DNA from: a virus
Taxonomy: Duplodnaviria; Heunggongvirae; Uroviricota; Caudoviricetes
Virus record (IMG/VR): IMGVR_UViG_2917403263_000003
Length of the DNA: 43,151 bases
Direction: 5' to 3' (one strand)
This document shows positions 23,896 to 42,425 of this stretch, in pieces; the first letter of the stretch is position 1, and the number at the start of each line of letters is the position of its first letter. Both the position numbers and the translations under genes were made by a program. The notes beneath the pieces were generated by a model. It was not told the origin of the DNA. It did no database searches and saw nothing but the letters and a program-made list of their open reading frames with translations.

Positions 23896-24273
23896 TTATC
23901 GTTTCAACTGAAAGTGAGGTCCGTCTTTCAGTGTTTTCCAGTCCCCGCCCCATTCGATGGCAGTTCCCAGCTCTGCGGCAGCCTGCTTAAATGCCTGCGC
24001 GATTTTCTCGTACAGAGGCCAGTCCCATGACACCTGGCTGCCAACGTAGGCCACAACATCCACCGCATCACCCGTCAGGTGGCGGCTGTTCATGGTCTGA
24101 CTTTTTCCTTCCGCGACCAGCTGTTTCTGGCGATACTTACTGCGCAGGCCTTCCGTAATACCAAAATCAACCTCCGTCAGCTCCAGCGCACGGCGAACGA
24201 CAGCAACCAGCTGTGGTTTGATGCCCTCCAGATTTTTTTCACTGCGACGGCTGAATCTGAATTTACCCGACAT
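23896..24273 (-). CDS. endolysin, M15-family L-alanyl-D-glutamate peptidase
   Basis: 125 aa; HLTGDAVDV and WGGDW motifs typical of Peptidase_M15 endolysins; ATG 24271-24273 just after upstream stop. Confidence 0.75.
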   Translation of the reverse strand: MSGKFRFSRRSEKNLEGIKPQLVAVVRRALELTEVDFGITEGLRSKYRQKQLVAEGKSQTMNSRHLTGDAVDVVAYVGSQVSWDWPLYEKIAQAFKQAAAELGTAIEWGGDWKTLKDGPHFQLKR

Positions 24274-24275
24274 AC

Positions 24276-24551
24276 TCACCTCAACAATGGAAAGATTCTT
24301 GTGACGTTCCCGCGTGCACGTATTACCAGTACGCAGAACAACAGATTAAAAAATACGTCCAGCCAGCCCGTTGCTAACGGGCGACCACACAGATAGCTGA
24401 GTGGCGCAATGGCATAAAGCAGCATCAGCAGCCAGGCCAGCCATGACATCAGCGGTTTATGCGTGGAATCTTTACGTCGATAAAAAAAGAGCGTCAGCAC
24501 GATAACCATGCATAACGCCACGTTCAGCAATCCGGGAAGGTTACTTAACAT
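24276..24551 (-). CDS. putative holin/antiholin-like membrane protein
   Basis: 91 aa from ATG 24549-24551 with GGAGG RBS; two or three hydrophobic helices; directly upstream of endolysin. Confidence 0.4.
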   Translation of the reverse strand: MLSNLPGLLNVALCMVIVLTLFFYRRKDSTHKPLMSWLAWLLMLLYAIAPLSYLCGRPLATGWLDVFFNLLFCVLVIRARGNVTRIFPLLR

Positions 24552-24934
24552 TTGCCGCCTCCTCCGCCCCGCAGGCGGGAGAACAGACCGGACACCAGTG
24601 ATGCAATATCCTGCTGGTGGATGAACGACAGAATCTTCACCGACACCACTGACACCAGCACTGCACAAAGTGCATCCGCAGATGTACCGTCATAACCTGT
24701 TTTTGATGCAATCCAAGCTGACAGCACACGTGCCCCCAGCACGCCGACAATGAACGACACCAGAAAATGCGCAGCCACACGCCAGGCTGAAAGTGACTGC
24801 GGCATCGTTGCCACAAACAACGCTCCCGCAAATGCACCAAACACAATCCCGAAATCCGTTCCGGTAAACAGCCCGAATACCGTCGCCCCACCGAGCGCCG
24901 CAGCCGTACCGGAACCGGACAAGGGTTCAGACAT
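24545..24934 (-). CDS. putative holin
   Basis: 129 aa from ATG 24932-24934 with AGGAG RBS; Gly/Ala-rich transmembrane segments, Gly-rich basic C-terminus. Confidence 0.5.
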   Translation of the reverse strand: MSEPLSGSGTAAALGGATVFGLFTGTDFGIVFGAFAGALFVATMPQSLSAWRVAAHFLVSFIVGVLGARVLSAWIASKTGYDGTSADALCAVLVSVVSVKILSFIHQQDIASLVSGLFSRLRGGGGGKC

Positions 24935-25026
24935 ACTTTTTCTCCTGTAAATAAAAAAGGGCCACCAGCGGCCCGTAAAAAAACAGCACCCAATCAAAGG
25001 CGCCCGCAGACGCCTTTTGTGTGGTG

Positions 25027-25179
25027 TTATTCAGATTTACGCAGTAAAGGCCGGAGCACGACCAGCGCCATTGCCACCAGCACACCATCTGCCAGTACCG
25101 ACATCAGCCGTCCGGTGAAATCCACCACCACTACCAGAAACAGCAGGATGGCAGCCAGCACAAGGCGCGCACTTTTCAC
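25027..25179 (-). CDS. small hydrophobic peptide (about 50 aa), not in ORF track
   Basis: GTG at 25177-25179 overlapping TerB-like stop (GTGA); translation VKSARLVLAAILLFLVVVVDFTGRLMSVLADGVLVAMALVVLRPLLRKSE. Confidence 0.2.
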   Translation of the reverse strand: MKSARLVLAAILLFLVVVVDFTGRLMSVLADGVLVAMALVVLRPLLRKSE

Positions 25180-25601
25180 AGATACTGCTCCAGTGGTAGC
25201 TGCAGCGCCTGCGCAATTTTCTTGAGCTGTGTCTCCTCCTCCGGACCAATGCCATCCTGGTCAGCAATATCCAGACACAGGCACAGCACATTAACTGCGT
25301 CATCAGTACCGGCAACATCAGCCAGCTGACGAAGGGCTTCGGCATTGGCAGAACGCGGTGACGCTTCATAACGGGCGCGGATATTGGCACTCATCTGGGC
25401 AATCTCACCGGAGAACGGCGCAAAGGCAGGAAGTGCTGCAATGGTTTTCTCCAGTACCGCGATTTCTTTCGCATCACAAGTACCGTCGGCGAATGCAATG
25501 GAATACGCACCCCAGACAGTCGCCTCCACTGCATCGCGGTTCTCCATTTTCTTTACTTCAGTAATGGCTTTGCGGGTTTTCTTTTTGAAAATACCAAACA
25601 T
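25176..25601 (-). CDS. TerB-like domain protein
   Basis: 141 aa; IAFADGTCDAKEIAVLEKTI and CLCLDIADQDGIGPEEETQLKKIAQAL resemble the two halves of TerB; ATG 25599-25601 with AGGA RBS. Confidence 0.5.
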   Translation of the reverse strand: MFGIFKKKTRKAITEVKKMENRDAVEATVWGAYSIAFADGTCDAKEIAVLEKTIAALPAFAPFSGEIAQMSANIRARYEASPRSANAEALRQLADVAGTDDAVNVLCLCLDIADQDGIGPEEETQLKKIAQALQLPLEQYL

Positions 25602-25808: not shown

Positions 25809-26169
25809 TGGTCAATGCATGAGATAAATCATTTTATTGTAATAAGAATCGAGGTGTCGGGTGCCTCCCGAAATATCCATCCCTACAACAGATATTGTGA
25901 TTCCCCGCTAAACCACTATATAAACCACCCTCGCACTGAGGAACACCTCTTTAGTGTTATTTACAACACCGGGATAGTGCATCATCGGCCCTGCCAGGAA
26001 ATACAAAACCTCCACCGATAATGCACCATTCCGTTGTTGTAAAAAAACAGCACTGTGACTACAACCGACCTCAAATCATAGCCAGAAAACAGAATGTCTT
26101 TTAAAAACAACCAGCCCCCACGTAACAAAAAAATACGCCAGTGCCACGATACAATAAGGCTTGTTTCTC

Positions 26170-26249
26170 TGGAGCGGGTCGCGGGAATCGAACCCGCATC
26201 ATCAGCCTGGAAGGTTGAGCTGAGGTAATAGCCATTATACGATACCCGC
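26170..26249 (-). tRNA. tRNA-Gly(UCC)-like gene with 5-nt insertion in anticodon arm (possible pseudo-tRNA)
   Basis: Acceptor, D and T arms and CCA match a tRNA-Gly(UCC) scaffold, but the anticodon region reads TCAGC-TCAACCTTCCAG-GCTGA (12-nt loop); acceptor position 7-66 mismatched. Confidence 0.5.
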
Positions 26250-26252
26250 ATA

Positions 26253-26328
<76 letters not shown>

Positions 26329-26496
26329 ATTGGTTCCTCGGGGGAGCGATACCACCTTGAAGAGGAGTTCCCCTCAGAACCGCGGCGTATAATAACGAAT
26401 AAAAAAAACACCTCAACTGAAATAATCCGAAAATAATCTCCGGATTAGTAATTATATCTTTTATTTTTGCTCTGTTGAAATTTCAGAAATAAAAAA

Positions 26497-27543
26497 TTAA
26501 ACACTCAAATCAATTTCATTAACAGTCTGTTTAAATCTGTTTTCCTCAAGCTCCACCCCAACCGCTTTCCTCCCCAACGACAATGCCGCTTTTATTGTTG
26601 AGCCTGAACCCATGAAAAAATCCGCAACCAAATCACCGGGACGACTGCTGGCAGTAATTATCTGACGCAACATATCCGCCGGTTTTTCACAGGGATGTTT
26701 GCCGGGGTAATACTGCACTGGCTTGTGCGTCCAGACATCCGTATAAGGAACGGCAGCCGATACGGAAAAATAACGCCGCAGGGATTTGTACTCATCCAGC
26801 AGACTGACATATTGCCGGTTCAGTTCACTGTATGTGCTGACCAACTGGTGGTGTGGCTTTTCCAGTTCACCGCGTTGATGTTTTTCTGCTGCAACACGCG
26901 CAAACAACGCCTGCAGTTTTCTGTAATCATCCTCGTTCGGTAACTGCCACTGACTGGCACCAAACCAGTGCGAAGCCATATTTTTCTTTCCGGTAGCTTC
27001 CGCTATCTGTTTCGACGTTATCCCCAGTGATTCACGTGCATCACGAAAGTAAGAAATCAGCGGGGCCATGACGTGCTGTTTAAGCTCGCGACCCTTTGTC
27101 GCGTAGCCGTCATTTTTGGGTTGATATGGCCCCTGATAATGTTCAGCAAACAGAATGCGCTCTGTTGCCGGGAAATACGCCCGCAGGCTTTCCTTATTGC
27201 ACCCGTTCCAGCGTCCGGACGGTTTCGCCCAGATAATGTGGTTCAACACATTAAAACGTTCACGCATCATGATTTCGATATCAGATGCTAGGCGATGCCC
27301 ACAGAACAGATAAAGACTTCCGGCAGGTTTCAGTACCCGCCAGAACTGCGCCAGACACTGGTCCAGCCATTTCAGGTAATCATCGTCGCCCTTCCACTGG
27401 TTATCCCAGCCTTCGGGCTTCACTTTAAAGTATGGCGGGTCTGTGACTATCAGATCGACAGAGTTTTCCGGTAAAGTCTGGATAAATTCCAGGCAATTAG
27501 CGTTGATTAATTCACAACTGGATATTTTTACAGTATCAACCAT
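26497..27543 (-). CDS. DNA methyltransferase (N6-adenine/N4-cytosine, beta-class motif order), orphan
   Basis: 348 aa; DPPY motif near N-terminus and FxGxG (FFMGSGS) near C-terminus; no adjacent restriction endonuclease. Confidence 0.8.
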   Translation of the reverse strand: MVDTVKISSCELINANCLEFIQTLPENSVDLIVTDPPYFKVKPEGWDNQWKGDDDYLKWLDQCLAQFWRVLKPAGSLYLFCGHRLASDIEIMMRERFNVLNHIIWAKPSGRWNGCNKESLRAYFPATERILFAEHYQGPYQPKNDGYATKGRELKQHVMAPLISYFRDARESLGITSKQIAEATGKKNMASHWFGASQWQLPNEDDYRKLQALFARVAAEKHQRGELEKPHHQLVSTYSELNRQYVSLLDEYKSLRRYFSVSAAVPYTDVWTHKPVQYYPGKHPCEKPADMLRQIITASSRPGDLVADFFMGSGSTIKAALSLGRKAVGVELEENRFKQTVNEIDLSV

Positions 27544-28039: not shown

Positions 28040-28594
28040 AAGCTGCGTGGCGAAGCAACCACTCTTAACAGGGTATCTAAATTTTTACGATCGTAAATAC
28101 TTTTGAGTTGGTTAATATTGTCCGTCCGCACATATTGGCAAATTCGTATACCCCGGCTGATGCGCCATATGCAGAGGTGCACAAGTCGGCCCACTTTTTT
28201 TCTCTTGATGCGTGTTTTTCGCTCGCACATCAGGTTGATTGTTTTTTATGCGCGATATTTTGTTGTTCACCTTATTTGTTCTTTTCTTTTGAATGGTAGA
28301 TTCTTGCTCCTCACTCTGCTTTATATTCGCTCCATCGACTGCCCCAAAATAATCGACCCCTCTAGCTGAATGAGACTCATCCTTACTTGCATTATTATAT
28401 CTATGATAATGATGTGTATGTGAACGATGGTACGATCTTTTATATCTCCGCTTTGCATCAGAAAAAGAAGAAAAAAAACAAACAAATCACCAATGTTAAA
28501 AAAAATTGACGTTCTAAACATATCCACCTTGCTTAATGTATTACGAGAACTTTTTTATTCTCTCCATTCATTCCGAATAAAAAAATGATACAAG

Positions 28595-28975
28595 TCAAAC
28601 CGACACAGCCAAATCCATCTCAAGAGAAACATCCAGCATCATTAACATACCATCAATAACGCCTTCTGCTTTTTGCAATCGTTTACCAATACAAGTATCA
28701 GAACACCCATGTTTCTCTGCCAGTCTCATGAATGTCATTCCAGCAACGTAATAGTCGACCAACAGATCATGTAATCTATTATTATTTTTCTTAAGGCGGG
28801 CCATACATCCACAAATAATCATTGCATCGTCATCACTACATTGTGGTCGTGATTTGACTTTTGAAGGAATAAGCCCTTTGAATCCTGCCGCAATAGTAGG
28901 CCAGGCCACATCTTCATAATTATTTGCAACCCACGCCCCCCAACGCTCAAGGACCATCTGAATATCACGCATCAT
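28595..28975 (-). CDS. late-gene antiterminator Q (phage 82/21-type)
   Basis: [15 protein letters not shown]...[13 protein letters not shown]...LLVDYYV closely resembles Q of phage 82 as recalled; ATG 28973-28975. Confidence 0.8.
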
Positions 28976-29336
28976 CGTTATCACCTGTAATTTCGAAAAT
29001 CTTCACACCCAGTCGCCCACCAAGAACAGGCAGCCCACGCACAATAGTAATTTCATCAAACTGCTCGTCATCGATAAGCAGTCCCGCATGCGTCAGTGCA
29101 TCCAGTGGTGCTTTCAGGATGTTGTCCAGGTCGCGGCGGCGCTTATCCGGTGGCTCTGCAACAATCTTTATTGCCAGCCTTCCGGACAGGTTTAATTTCA
29201 GCCGCTGCTGACGAACAATAAGCGCCACATCACGGCGATAACGCTCACCGGCTTTTGATACAAAATATGTGCTGCCACGACGTCGCCAGTAGGTGTTCAC
29301 CGTCGGCGGGTAAGGCAAAACAAACTCTATACGCAT
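28965..29336 (-). CDS. rusA: Holliday junction resolvase RusA
   Basis: 123 aa; [15 protein letters not shown] start and catalytic-region [18 protein letters not shown] typical of RusA. Confidence 0.85.
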
Positions 29337-31343: not shown

Positions 31344-31499
31344 TTACTCCTCAGGTTCGTAAGCTGTGAAGACAGCGACCTCCGTCTGTCCGGTTCGGAT
31401 TCGTACCTCGCAGAGGTCTTTCCTCGTTACCAGTGCCGTCACAATGACGGTTAAACAGATGACGATCAGGGCGATTAGCATCGCCTTTTGCTGCTTCAT
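31344..31499 (-). CDS. hokD: Hok/Gef-family type I toxin
   Basis: 51 aa MKQQKAMLIALIVICLTVIVTALVTRKDLCEVRIRTGQTEVAVFTAYEPEE; single TM helix plus conserved CE(V/I)R motif; AAGGAG RBS; in-frame upstream extension in listed ORF. Confidence 0.8.
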   Translation of the reverse strand: MKQQKAMLIALIVICLTVIVTALVTRKDLCEVRIRTGQTEVAVFTAYEPEE

Positions 31500-31792
31500 A
31501 GCCTGCTTCTCCTTGCCTTTCGGCACGTAAGAGGCTAACCTACGTGTGCAAGTCATAGATATGGCCTCAGATTAATGTTAAGCGTCTTGCAGGACGCGTA
31601 ATGTTAACTGGGGCTTTTCTCTGTCTGCCTTACAGTGGCATGCCCGAGGCAGACAGCCTCAAGCACCCGCAGCAATTCTACTTAACTATCTTTCTCCCGC
31701 AAATCGTTTTTATCCCCAGCGGCAAATCGAATACACCACCAGCGCCACCGCCAGTGCAATTCCTACTGTTGTGAATGCTTTAGGCTAGGTCA

Positions 31793-36273: not shown

Positions 36274-36681
36274 ATGGATACAAAAAATTTAACCATTGGC
36301 GAACGCATTAGGTATCGCCGAAAAAACCTCAAATACACCCAAAGGTCTCTTGCTAAAGCCCTGAAAATTTCTCATGTATCGGTTTCACAATGGGAACGGG
36401 ATGATAGCGAACCTACAGGGAAGAATCTTTTTGCCCTCAGCAATGTACTGCAGTGCTCGCCAACATGGATTCTATTTGGCGATGAAGACAAGCAGCCATC
36501 ACCACCTATTGAGGAGCCAGTTGCTTTATCCCCCAAAGAACACGAGCTCCTTGAGCTTTTTAATGCATTGCCTGAATCAGAACAGGATGCTCAGCTCACC
36601 GAGATGCGCGCCCGAGTAAAAAATTTCAACAAACTCTTTGAAGAATTATTAAAAGCCCGTCAACGAACAAACAAAAGATAA
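36274..36681 (+). CDS. dicA: DicA-like XRE/cI-family repressor
   Basis: 135 aa; N-terminal HTH (TQRSLAKALKISHVSVSQWER); divergent from cro-like gene; followed by ydfA-like, DicF and dicB-like genes as in Qin. Confidence 0.8.
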   Translation: MDTKNLTIGERIRYRRKNLKYTQRSLAKALKISHVSVSQWERDDSEPTGKNLFALSNVLQCSPTWILFGDEDKQPSPPIEEPVALSPKEHELLELFNALPESEQDAQLTEMRARVKNFNKLFEELLKARQRTNKR

Positions 36682-37838: not shown

Positions 37839-37896
37839 TTTCTGGTGACGTTTGGCGGTATCAGTTTTACTCCGTGACTGCTCTGCCGCCATTTTT
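37839..37896 (+). ncRNA. dicF: DicF small RNA (ftsZ-targeting sRNA)
   Basis: tttctggtgacgtttggcggtatcagttttactccgtgactgctctgccgcc + T-run matches the DicF sequence as recalled; 3' GC stem plus U-tract; upstream of dicB-like gene. Confidence 0.7.
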
Positions 37897-38535: not shown

Positions 38536-39678
38536 ATGAGTAAAGTCTTTATTTGCGCCGCCATTCCGGACGAACAGGCAATAAAGGAAGACGGTGCAGT
38601 TGCTGTAGCCACTGCCATTGAAGCCGGCGACGAACGCCGCGCCCGTGCTAAATTTGCATGGCAATTCCTGGAGCAATATCCGGCTGCTCAGGACTGCGCT
38701 TATAAATTTCTTGTCTGCGAGGATAAGCCCGGCATGCCACGCCCTGCCCTCGATTCCTGGGATACCGAATATATGCAGGAAAATCGCTGGGATGAAAACT
38801 CAGCTTCTTTTGTCCTGGTCGAACCAGAATCCGATCCGATGAACGTCAATTTTGACAAGCTGTCCCTTGAAGTACAGAACGCGGTCCTGGTTAAGTTCGG
38901 TACATGTGAAAACATCACCGTTGATATGGTGATTAGCGCACAGGAGTTACTGCAGGAAGACATGGCAACATTCGACGGGCATATCGTTGAAGCATTAATG
39001 AAAACGCCTGAAATTAACGCTATGTATCCGGAACGCAAACTGTTCGCTATCGGATGGGTTAAGCACAAATGTAAGCCGAGTGCCAAATGGCCCGAAATTC
39101 AGACTGAATTACGTAACTGGAAAAAACGGCAGGACGCAGAGCGCAAAGAGACTGGAAAATACACGTCTGTTGTTGATCTTGCCCGCGCCAAAGCCAACCG
39201 ACAGCACACTGAAAACCCGGCGGGAAAAATCCACCCTGTCACTGCTGCCATTCGTCGCGAATACAAGCAGACATGGAAAACACTGGATGAAGAACTGGCC
39301 TGCTATCTCTGGCCTAGTGATATGGATGCCGGAAACATTGACGGCAGCATCCTTCGCTGGGCAAAAAATGAAGTTATCGCCAAGGATCGCGAAGACTGGA
39401 AGCGTATTTCAGCATCTATGCGCAAACAGCCTGATGCGCTTCGCTACAGCTGTCAGACTATTTTTGGTCTTGTCCGTGAGCGCCCGATCGACATTCACAA
39501 AGACCCTGTGGCACTGAACAAATACATCACTGAATACCTGGCGACAAAGGGCGTGTTTGAGGATGAAGAAACAGACCAGAGCACTGCTGATATTCTCCAA
39601 CCGTCAGCAGCACAAACTGATGCAGTGGAAACTGAAGTATCTGATACCAAAAAAAATGAAAGCAACGCTGGAAACTGA
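38536..39678 (+). CDS. RecE-like protein, N-terminal part (ydfE-like); may be fused to next ORF
   Basis: 380 aa; ends 23 nt after an A8 run (39649-39656) at which the next ORF begins in another frame. Confidence 0.45.
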
Positions 39679-41008
39679 ACCATCTGTAGAGCGTGAGGGG
39701 CCGTTCTACTTCCTCTTTACCGATAAAGATGGCGAAAAATACGGTCGCGCAAACAAACTTTCTGGTCTGGATAAGGCGCTGGCTGCGGGAGCTACTGAAA
39801 TCACGAAAGAAGAATATTTTGCCCGCAAAAACGGTACATACTCAGGTTCACAACAAAATACTGGTGCATCTGACACGATCGCACAACCGGAACTGGTAAA
39901 AGTTACCGCTGACGAAGTAAACCAAATTATGCAGGCAGCCAATATCAAGCAGACTGACGCCGATAAGTTGCTTGCTGTATCACGTGGTGAATTTGTTGAC
40001 GGGATTAGCGACCCGAATGACCCAAAATGGGTTAAGGGGATCCAGACTCGCGATTCTGTGAACCAGAACCTGCAAGAAACGGAACAGAACGACCAGAAAG
40101 CGGAACAAAACAGCCAAAATGCGTTACAAAACGAGCCAGAAACGAAACAGCCTGAACCAGTAGTGCAACAAGAAGTGGAAAAAGGTTGCACCGCCTGCGG
40201 GCAGACAGGCGGTGGCAACTGCCCTGATTGTGGTGCAGTGATGGGCGACGCAACATACCAGGAAACATTCGATGGAGAAAATCAGGATGAATCTCGGGAA
40301 GAAAGTCCGGAGGAAATGGAAGGCACTGAGCATCCGCACAAGGAGAACACTGGCGGCGATCAGGACCACGTCAGCGATAATGAAACTGGCGAGGTGACAG
40401 CTCCCTTAGTTAAGGTGAACGGTCATCATGAAACCACATCCACCAGCAGGGTGTGGCACCATCTGATGATCGACCTTGAAACGATGGGAAAAAATCCTGA
40501 TGCTCCGATTATCTCAATAGGTGCAATATTTTTCGATCCGCAAACCGGAGATATGGGGCCGGAATTTATTAAGACTGTTGATCTGGAAACTGCAGGCGGA
40601 ATCATTGATCGGGACGCCATTAAATGGTGGCTGAAACAATCACGCGAAGCGCAATCCGCCATTCTGGTCGATGAAATCCCGTTGGATGATGCACTGCTGC
40701 AGTTGCGTGAATTTATAGACGAAAACTCCGGTGAATTTTTTGTTCGGGCCTGGGGAAATGGGGCCAACTTCGACAACGTGATTTTACGCCGTTCATATGA
40801 ACGACAGGGAATCCCCTGTCCGTGGCGTTACTACAACGATCGCGATGTGCGCACAATCGTTGAGCTGGGAAAAGCCCTGGAATTTGATGCCAGAGCGGCT
40901 ATTCCGTTCGAGGGTGTACCCCACAATGCACTGGATGACGCCCGCCACCAGGCGAAATACATTTCAGCAATCTGGCAAAAACTGATCCCTAATCAGATTG
41001 ATTTTTAA
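39656..41008 (+). CDS. RecE-like central region with C-terminal DnaQ-type (DEDDh) 3'-5' exonuclease domain
   Basis: [30 protein letters not shown]...[29 protein letters not shown] resembles the middle of Rac RecE as recalled; C-terminus has [34 protein letters not shown]. Confidence 0.6.
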
Positions 41009-41339: not shown

Positions 41340-42425
41340 CGTAGCCGGTCTTTACGAAAAGTTTGATCGCAGAACTGGCAGGGTTTACTACCAGTATAAA
41401 AACCCTGTGACTGGAAAATTTCACGGGCTCGGAACAGACAAAGGCAAAGCAGAAAGAATCGCTTCCACAGCCAATCAGCGAATAGCTGCAGCAGAAGCTG
41501 AATACTTCATGCGCAAAATTGATGAAAGTCCGTCAGCAACAAAACGTCGGGGTATCAGATTAAAGCATGGGTTGATCGGTATCTGAAAATACAGGATACA
41601 CGACTGAAAAATGGGGATATTGCAGCTACAACCCACAAAGAAAAAGCGCGAATGGCTGCATACCTGGTTTCCCGCCTGGGAAACCACCCATTGAAAGAAC
41701 TTGAAGTAAGAGACTTTGCATTGATACTGGACGAGTGGCTGGATAAAGACATGGTGAGCACAGCGAGAGTAAATCGCGGATTATGGGTTGATATTTATAA
41801 AGAAGCACAGCATGCAGGGGAAGTCCCTCCCGGATGGAATCCTCCGGAGGCTACCCGTAAACCGATCCCTAAAGTAACCAGAGCCAGGCTCACTCTGGAA
41901 GACTGGCAAAAAATTTACAACGCAACACCTGAAAAACACTTTATCCGTAACGCAATGCTTCTTGCGATTGTTACTGGCCAGCGCCGTGATGACATATGCC
42001 ACATGCGTTTTTCAGATGTGTGGAACGATCACCTGCATATTACCCAGGGAAAAACTGGAATGCGTCTGGCGTTACCGCTTACGCTACGCTGTGATGCCAT
42101 TGGGATATCGCTAAAAGAAGTGATTAATGGATGCAGGGACAGAATATTGAGTCCATACCTGATTCATAGTCGGCACCAGAAACAACCAAAACCAATGAGT
42201 AAAGACAACCTGAGCGATTACTTTGCCAAAGCGCGGGAGCTGGCTGGAATAATTCCACCAGCAGGAAAAACACCGCCAACATTTCATGAACAACGCTCCC
42301 TGTCAGAACGGCTGTACCGCGCACAGGGTATCGATACAAAAACATTACTGGGACATAAAGTCCAGGCAACCACCGATCGCTATAACGATACTCGTGGTCA
42401 GGAATGGGTTAAATTGGTTGTTTGA
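41308..42425 (+). CDS. tyrosine integrase (lambda Int family), interrupted by a single-base frameshift
   Basis: N-terminal arm-binding-like domain in ORF 41308..41586; the catalytic part (WVDRYLKIQ..., HEQRSLSERLY, TDRY) continues in another frame from about 41550 to 42425; one G added in the G4 run 41549-41552 restores a single frame. Confidence 0.8.

Follow-up and report, generated by a model that had tools for sequence, protein, structure and literature searches.

A tRNA-Gly(UCC)-derived prophage gene with an expanded anticodon loop, probably a pseudogene

Our analysis of a 43,151-nt stretch of Caudoviricetes DNA (IMG/VR record IMGVR_UViG_2917403263_000003, hereafter the window) strongly favors the view that a tRNA-Gly(UCC)-like gene on its minus strand is a genuine, inherited pseudogene residing in a decaying prophage. 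The gene, GCGGGTATCGTATAATGGCTATTACCTCAGCTCAACCTTCCAGGCTGATGATGCGGGTTCGATTCCCGCGACCCGCTCCA, descends from a functional tRNA family, bears a disrupting lesion that is absent from its relatives and shows, on small counts, relaxed constraint. The window is prophage throughout, with tail-fibre and baseplate genes to the left and a cI-like repressor, DicF, an exonuclease, an excisionase and an integrase to the right. The positions of the tRNA genes, the lesions and the neighboring genes are collected in Table 1.

Table 1. Positions within the window of the two tRNA genes, the changes in the Gly gene and the genes around them
Feature	Position	Strand	Description and basis
tRNA-Gly(UCC)-derived gene, expanded anticodon loop, probable pseudogene	26170..26249	-	80 nt including encoded CCA; ARAGORN, Rfam RF00005, homologue alignment
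Five inserted bases	26214..26218	-	RNA UCAAC, positions 32-36 of the 80-mer (equivalently CUCAA at 31-35); gap column in alignments
U66G	26180	-	A7-U66 acceptor pair becomes an A.G mismatch; alignments, cmscan 'v' mark, ARAGORN drawing
A38G	26207	-	shared with E. coli ET650
Former anticodon UCC	26209..26211	-	now RNA positions 39-41 within the 10-12-nt loop; UCU in the sister lineage (+26209 G>A)
tRNA-Thr(UGU), intact, 76 nt	26253..26328	-	3 nt upstream of the Gly gene; ARAGORN (tgt), Rfam 69.8 bits
Sigma-70-like promoter match, TCAACA-16-TATAAT, 10/12	26451..26478	-	about 120 nt upstream of tRNA-Thr; consensus scan only
N6/N4 DNA methylase gene	26497..27543	-	Pfam PF01555, E 2.7e-44; directly upstream of the tRNA pair
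Antiterminator Q gene	28595..28984	-	Pfam PF06530, E 5.7e-53
TerB-like gene	25176..25601	-	Pfam; first coding gene downstream of the tRNAs
Two holins	24545-24997, 24276-24668		after the TerB-like gene; Pfam
M15 endolysin	23896-24279		after the holins; Pfam

The enlarged anticodon loop and its predicted fold

ARAGORN reported the gene, which can also be written GCGGGUAUCGUAUAAUGGCUAUUACCUCAGCUCAACCUUCCAGGCUGAUGAUGCGGGUUCGAUUCCCGCGACCCGCUCCA, as an 80-nt tRNA-Gly(tcc) with its anticodon shifted from position 34 to position 39. It also passed the Rfam tRNA model RF00005, scoring 40.9 bits (E 2.2e-05) against a gathering score of 29, which is 21–25 bits below its intact siblings (61.6 and 65.6 bits with the same model). 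In the cmscan alignment the loop takes up 11 residues against 6 in the consensus, and one of the acceptor pairs is marked as non-standard. The gene lacks the canonical configuration, in which a 7-nt loop contains U33 and presents the anticodon at positions 34–36. A preceding sequence-only reading had described anticodon stem halves TCAGC and GCTGA enclosing a 12-nt loop, TCAACCTTCCAG, and had proposed an insertion of five nucleotides, TCAAC, into a tRNA-Gly(UCC)-like gene. The stem halves and loop are indeed read on the minus strand as it described, and an alignment with four prophage homologues and the host glyT gene contains exactly five extra bases, situated between G30/C31 and C32. It had further held that the acceptor, D and T arms and the CCA end fit a tRNA-Gly(UCC) scaffold. 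This holds for the D arm, the T arm and the CCA, which are intact together with the discriminator U73, but not fully for the acceptor stem, which retains six of its seven pairs and contains an A7.G66 mismatch. The elements looked for in a regular tRNA were a 7-bp acceptor stem, a D arm bearing G18G19, a T arm whose loop reads GTTCGAWTC, and a discriminator followed by CCA. The acceptor change, U66G, had been overlooked, as had A38G and the four-in-five likeness of the inserted pentamer to the bases beside it.

Folding predictions consistently favor the expanded loop. With a 5-bp anticodon stem formed by the halves UCAGC and GCUGA, the 12-nt loop in its RNA form is UCAACCUUCCAG; RNAfold predicted a 6-bp stem, extended by a U.G pair, which closes a loop of 10 nt. 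When the cloverleaf was imposed, the fold with the 6-bp stem and 10-nt loop was assigned -25.8 kcal/mol and that with the 5-bp stem and 12-nt loop -24.3 kcal/mol, as against -18.3 kcal/mol for the register in which a 7-nt loop is obtained by using the inserted UCAAC as the 5' strand of the stem. This latter register falls 7.5 kcal/mol short of the expanded-loop fold in predicted stability, and its pair probabilities do not exceed 0.07. It is nevertheless the register on which the tRNA-Gly call of ARAGORN rests, at the cost of an A.C mismatch and the collapse of its D arm. The sequence-only reading had allowed that a tRNA detection program might call an ordinary tRNA with a 7-nt loop here, and the call that was obtained reaches seven nucleotides only by means of this mismatched stem and collapsed arm. 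In view of the predicted energies and pairing probabilities, a functional 7-nt register of the kind drawn by ARAGORN was rejected.

If an RNA is made from this gene, its acceptor, D and T arms would be expected to form, and its oversized loop should be incapable of presenting the canonical U-turn between U33 and the anticodon. The gene would accordingly be predicted not to decode GGA or GGG and to be glycylated poorly at best. The nucleotides that we take to constitute the identity set of glycyl-tRNA synthetase (GlyRS), namely G1-C72, C2-G71, G3-C70, U73, C35 and C36, are all found in the window allele, with the anticodon displaced. A stable, processed and possibly chargeable RNA is plausible, because the gene passes the Rfam threshold and keeps the CCA end, U73 and the G1-C72, C2-G71 and G3-C70 pairs. 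We also considered a group I intron in the anticodon loop. Such introns in bacterial tRNA genes span hundreds of nucleotides and usually lie 3' of the anticodon; the insertion here is only 5 nt long and lies 5' of it, and no Rfam intron match was found in the window.

Genomic context, descent and distribution of the allele

The order of elements on the minus strand is DUF968, RusA, Q, two small ORFs, the methylase, tRNA-Thr, tRNA-Gly, the TerB-like gene, two holins and the M15 endolysin, and it is the position of the Q gene that places the tRNAs in the late operon. Scans for consensus features only detected a terminator-like hairpin downstream of Q (28039-28018) and two more downstream of the Gly gene. 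A gene for a 50-aa DUF3927 protein also follows the TerB-like gene. An 89-aa ORF (25982-26251, minus strand), whose ATG overlaps the first bases of the tRNA-Gly gene, reads through the insertion; being without a Pfam match and uncalled in the source assembly, it is probably spurious. Across the ORFs of the window GGA makes up 20.8% of the glycine codons and ACA 25.7% of the threonine codons, a usage that would fit a codon-supply rationale for phage tRNAs.

Elsewhere in the window we noted a full-length Rfam match to the sok antitoxin RNA (112.9 bits, 31494-31668, minus strand), which implies a putative hok/sok-type toxin-antitoxin locus in the early region of the prophage. A full-length DicF small RNA (73.4 bits, 37840-37891, plus strand) adjoins a cI/DicA-like HTH repressor gene (36274-36681) and dicB/ydfD-like genes, in a layout like that of the Qin/Kim-type immunity region.

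The consensus of the prophage tRNA-Gly genes, to which 87 of the 125 sampled copies are identical, is the same as host glyT at 73 of 75 positions, and departs from it only by a compensatory change of C6-G67 to U6-A67. The glyT sequence used in this comparison is 100% identical to the annotated tRNA-Gly in complete E. coli genomes. This gene, which encodes tRNA-Gly2(UCC) in the thrU-tyrU-glyT-thrT-tufB operon, has the same D, T and anticodon arms as the prophage consensus; the window copy differs from it further by the insertion, G38 and G66, by its location in a prophage late operon and by the absence of tyrU between the Thr and Gly genes. The alignments identify the Gly gene of the window as a descendant of a prophage-borne copy of host glyT. 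The adjacent tRNA-Thr is derived from host thrU, with a 96–98% identical copy present in most, or essentially all, E. coli genomes. Given the close match of the prophage Gly consensus to glyT and the 96–98% identity of the Thr gene to E. coli tRNA-Thr, the two genes are a captured thrU/glyT pair.

Apart from the 5-nt insertion, the Gly gene differs from intact prophage copies at only two positions, G38 and G66. Among the sampled family copies, U66G is private to the clade that bears the insertion. A38G is a polymorphism of the family, because E. coli ET650 has it in an otherwise normal 75-nt copy. The inserted pentamer, which can be written as CUCAA or UCAAC, matches the adjacent CUCAG or UCAGC in four of five bases, and because it is such a near copy of its neighbor it suggests an origin by slippage, with a tandem duplication of CTCAG followed by a single G>A transition.

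The insertion is not confined to the window. The identical 80-nt allele was found, through a look-up of identical neighboring proteins, in GCA_005781135.1, which over 7 kb differs from the window only in the length of two T-runs, at window positions 28478 and 28505 (T8 vs T7); one of the two assemblies probably contains sequencing errors at these homopolymers. The window is also 100% identical to GCA_004745145.1 across the 7.6 kb compared. The presence of the same allele in other assemblies rules out a private mutation of a single record. A sister lineage with the same insertion and G66 is represented by three records, GCA_005781185.1, GCA_004745255.1 and IMG/VR UViG_2913112809_000003, the first two of which differ from each other by two single-T indels. 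In this lineage the anticodon has changed from UCC to UCU (C36U), and ARAGORN calls the gene tRNA-Arg(tct). Compared across 4.36 kb, the two lineages have 98.4% identity, and their shared lesion places the insertion, on sequence grounds, before the split of the two prophages. It should be noted that repeated sequencing of only two strains may account for all five insertion records. The IMG genome 2913112809 combines the broken allele with an intact Thr-Gly pair in a second prophage. Since host glyT and, in this at least one carrier, the intact second pair are available, loss of the Gly gene would be harmless.

The allele is rare in all the collections that were searched. The insertion is absent from the 124 other copies of the family, all with a 7-nt loop, that were drawn from 119 IMG/VR loci and 5 phage or E. 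coli loci. When the 80-mer was compared with 5,426 complete E. coli genomes, 466 places in 367 genomes were recovered, all of them 75 nt in length with a 7-nt loop; none reached 95% identity, and the best matches, at 92.5%, were 75-nt genes. The phages of INPHARED contained nothing closer than 91.3%. Among the 302 tRNA calls made across all fetched loci, an anticodon at position 39 was seen in only six, every one of them within the insertion clade. The allele can be characterized by the string GGCTATTAYCTCAGCTCAACCTT; exact and gapped insertion patterns requiring CCTTCCAR, which are blind to the UCU sister allele, gave no matches in GTDB species representatives, IMG/VR or JGI metagenomes, and a relaxed pattern run against IMG/VR and the metagenomes gave one IMG/VR contig and no metagenome contig. 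A search of the literature on the Thr and Gly tRNAs of lambdoid prophages and on expanded phage anticodon loops found nothing specific to this element. The flanking host DNA, lolE-nagK-cobB-ycfZ-potC (L133:1-6500, GCA_004745145.1), shows at most 95.4% identity to any of the 5,426 complete E. coli genomes. In all likelihood the carrier belongs to an Escherichia lineage outside mainstream E. coli, such as a cryptic clade or sister species, and this would explain why the allele is missing from the E. coli collection. A related prophage in E. coli XJ34 also lies beside potC.

Selection, prophage decay and alternative readings

To gauge selection we used the differences between the two insertion-bearing prophage lineages, the counts of which are small. 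Intergenic DNA around the tRNAs differs by 2.4–3.5%. All 8 differences in the TerB-like gene are synonymous, which indicates strong purifying selection on this moron-like gene, and the methylase gene has 11 nucleotide and 5 amino-acid differences. Two differences are seen in the 76 nt of tRNA-Thr, and these constitute a compensatory pair in which A5-U68 is replaced by G5-C68 in the sister lineage. Given the compensatory nature of the Thr changes and the exclusively synonymous changes of the TerB-like gene, selection still acts on the neighbors of the Gly gene. The 80 nt of tRNA-Gly show a single difference, which falls in the anticodon and leaves the acceptor, D and T arms unchanged. This one difference compares with about 2.4 expected under neutrality (a Poisson estimate gives P ~0.3 for one or fewer), and when set against the flanks it fits neutrality, although so small a count does not discriminate between neutral change and a constraint on those three arms. 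Each of the clade-specific changes in the Gly gene (the insertion, U66G and C36U) breaks structure or alters identity. A tRNA-Thr under selection next to a tRNA-Gly that is accumulating damage conforms to the pattern expected of a pseudogene beside a selected gene. Two interpretations had been offered in the sequence-only reading, a decaying phage tRNA or a noncanonical RNA, and the comparative evidence, in the form of the lesion absent from siblings, U66G, the lost anticodon and the contrast with tRNA-Thr, supports the first of them. The same reading had judged the adjacent tRNA-Thr(UGU) to be intact, with which its Rfam score (Table 1) agrees.

Decay is also apparent elsewhere in the prophage. 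In comparison with the intact homologues of E. coli XJ34, a 1-nt insertion at about 39662 (plus strand) splits an 823-aa exonuclease gene into ORFs 38536-39678 and 39557-41008, and a 1-nt deletion at about 41565 (plus strand) divides a 372-aa integrase gene between a 257-aa ORF (41652-42425) and a piece of about 92 aa. Neither of these indels lies in a long homopolymer, and the source assembly has no protein call at the two loci. The prophage has probably lost the ability to excise.

These observations can be arranged in a simple scenario. A Thr(UGU)-Gly(UCC) pair copied from host thrU and glyT lies between Q and the lysis genes, a position in which it would be transcribed with the late operon. 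An insertion of 5 bp at the 5' side of the anticodon loop, probably by the slipped duplication and subsequent transition proposed above, left the anticodon stem closing a loop of 10–12 nt, with UCC displaced by five positions. With decoding lost the gene would then have drifted, U66G breaking the 7-66 pair and C36U removing the glycine anticodon in the sister lineage.

The lack of change in the acceptor, D and T arms also admits of a reading in which the Gly gene serves as a processing handle for RNase P, such that a cut 3 nt after the CCA of tRNA-Thr would set the 3' end of that tRNA and punctuate the Q-dependent late transcript. RNase P requires only the minihelix of the acceptor stem and T arm and not the anticodon arm, and the dimeric tRNA precursors of phage T4 provide an analogue. 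Only 3 nt separate the Thr CCA from G1 of the Gly gene, and the acceptor stem with its six pairs, the T arm, the D arm and the CCA are the same in both lineages, whose intergenic flanks have diverged by the amounts given above; a role of this kind, if true, would explain why these arms are unchanged and the anticodon arm has decayed. However, zero changes in about 68 nt, where roughly 2 would be expected, are not significantly fewer, and U66G weakens the very helix that RNase P would use. In E. coli the 3' ends of tRNAs are also matured by other routes involving RNase E and exonucleases. We consider this reading unlikely, though it is the best of the alternatives to the pseudogene.

Still less probable is a working, noncanonical decoder, either as a minority conformer with a 7-nt loop that reads GGA weakly or as a frameshift suppressor that reads an extended codon. 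In its favor are the 7-nt-loop cloverleaf that ARAGORN is able to draw and the presence in the window allele of all the presumed GlyRS identity nucleotides. Against it stand the energetic disadvantage of that register, its pair probabilities of at most 7% and its collapsed D arm, together with the mutation of the anticodon in the sister lineage and the restriction of the allele to one small clade. In the known natural frameshift suppressors the loop has 8 nt and the extra base is beside the anticodon, an arrangement unlike the five bases added here at the loop's 5' edge. A frameshift suppressor was rejected on this account, as the loop of the window gene comprises 10–12 nt and the added bases, at its 5' junction, are separated from the anticodon by three to four bases.

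A decoy or sponge for a nuclease that targets anticodon loops, or for a tRNA-modifying enzyme, might be conceived by analogy with phage tRNAs in which altered anticodon loops evade or neutralize anticodon nucleases. The known evasion variants retain a loop of 7 nt and are found conserved in different phages, and the window gene departs from them on both counts. The change is limited to a tiny clade, the loop differs between the lineages (UCC vs UCU), and no tRNA-Gly-specific nuclease was evident in the window; we regard this possibility as very remote. That the five bases are an artefact of sequencing or assembly, as might be imagined from the repetition of host thrU/glyT in the tRNA region and from two Logan short-read contigs that break inside tRNA-Thr, has a negligible chance of being correct and is ruled out in practice by the recurrence of the insertion in five records and in two allelic forms from prophages 1.6% apart, the assemblies within each pair differing only at T homopolymers in a manner that suggests different sequencing technologies. 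The earlier remark that the insertion is not an error of the homopolymer type was correct in this respect, the further assemblies confirming it.

The pseudogene reading has consequences for annotation. Both ARAGORN and the Rfam threshold accept the gene, so that automated pipelines would tally it among the functional tRNAs, and in the case of the sister allele a wrong amino-acid identity (Arg) is assigned from a forced structure. The gene also illustrates, on a small scale, how selection differs between the two members of a prophage tRNA cluster, and how a cryptic prophage decays gene by gene. It would have a bearing on decoding or on phage-host conflict only if the RNA were expressed and functional.

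Comparison with known tRNA systems

The closest counterparts of the window genes are the Thr(UGU)-Gly(UCC) pairs of lambdoid and P27-like Escherichia prophages, which have the same order of Q/methylase, Thr, 3-nt spacer, Gly and lysis genes. Carriers of this pair include the Escherichia phages vB_EcoS-683R6, phi467, JLK-2012 and SerU-LTIIb, and E. coli Eco_23-2667, ET650 and ETEC1747. The flank downstream of the window tRNAs is common to vB_EcoS-683R6. In these relatives the tRNA-Thr is nearly identical to that of the window and the tRNA-Gly is identical apart from the lesions; their Gly genes are 75 nt long, with a 7-nt loop and an A7-U66 pair, whereas that of the window has five additional bases, U66G and A38G.

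Two further variants were noted in this family. In SerU-LTIIb the tRNA at the Thr position (L003:1122-1197) has a body of the Thr(UGU) type with the anticodon UCU and is annotated as tRNA-Arg. This is apparently an anticodon switch within the same prophage tRNA family, and it parallels the change of UCC to UCU in the Gly gene of the sister lineage. A sublineage of nine IMG/VR copies has the loop UUUCCAG (U32, G38) and C66 opposite A7, which gives an A.C mismatch; its 3' end reads ...CGCTCTCCA, so that the CCA does not directly follow the discriminator, and some of the copies have changes in the T arm. This sublineage may be decaying independently, by another route, or may have a form that is tolerated.

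The tRNA clusters of Stx phages (ileZ-argN-argO), located between Q and the late or toxin genes, occupy the same place as the window pair, downstream of the antiterminator and upstream of moron and lysis genes. The presumed role of such clusters is to supply tRNAs for codons that are used more by the phage than by its host, and in this presumed role the two would be alike; the tRNA species differ, and in the window the Gly member is disabled. Suppressors of the sufD/sufA6 type and engineered quadruplet decoders resemble the window gene in having a loop of more than 7 nt in an otherwise normal cloverleaf. However, the loops of the suppressors have 8 nt, or rarely 9 nt, with the extra base adjoining the anticodon, and have been selected for function. 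The loop of the window gene has 10–12 nt, with five bases at the 5' junction of stem and loop, and its anticodon changes between lineages. Decayed tRNA genes of prophages are a known kind of element, and the window gene is a new, minor example of them.
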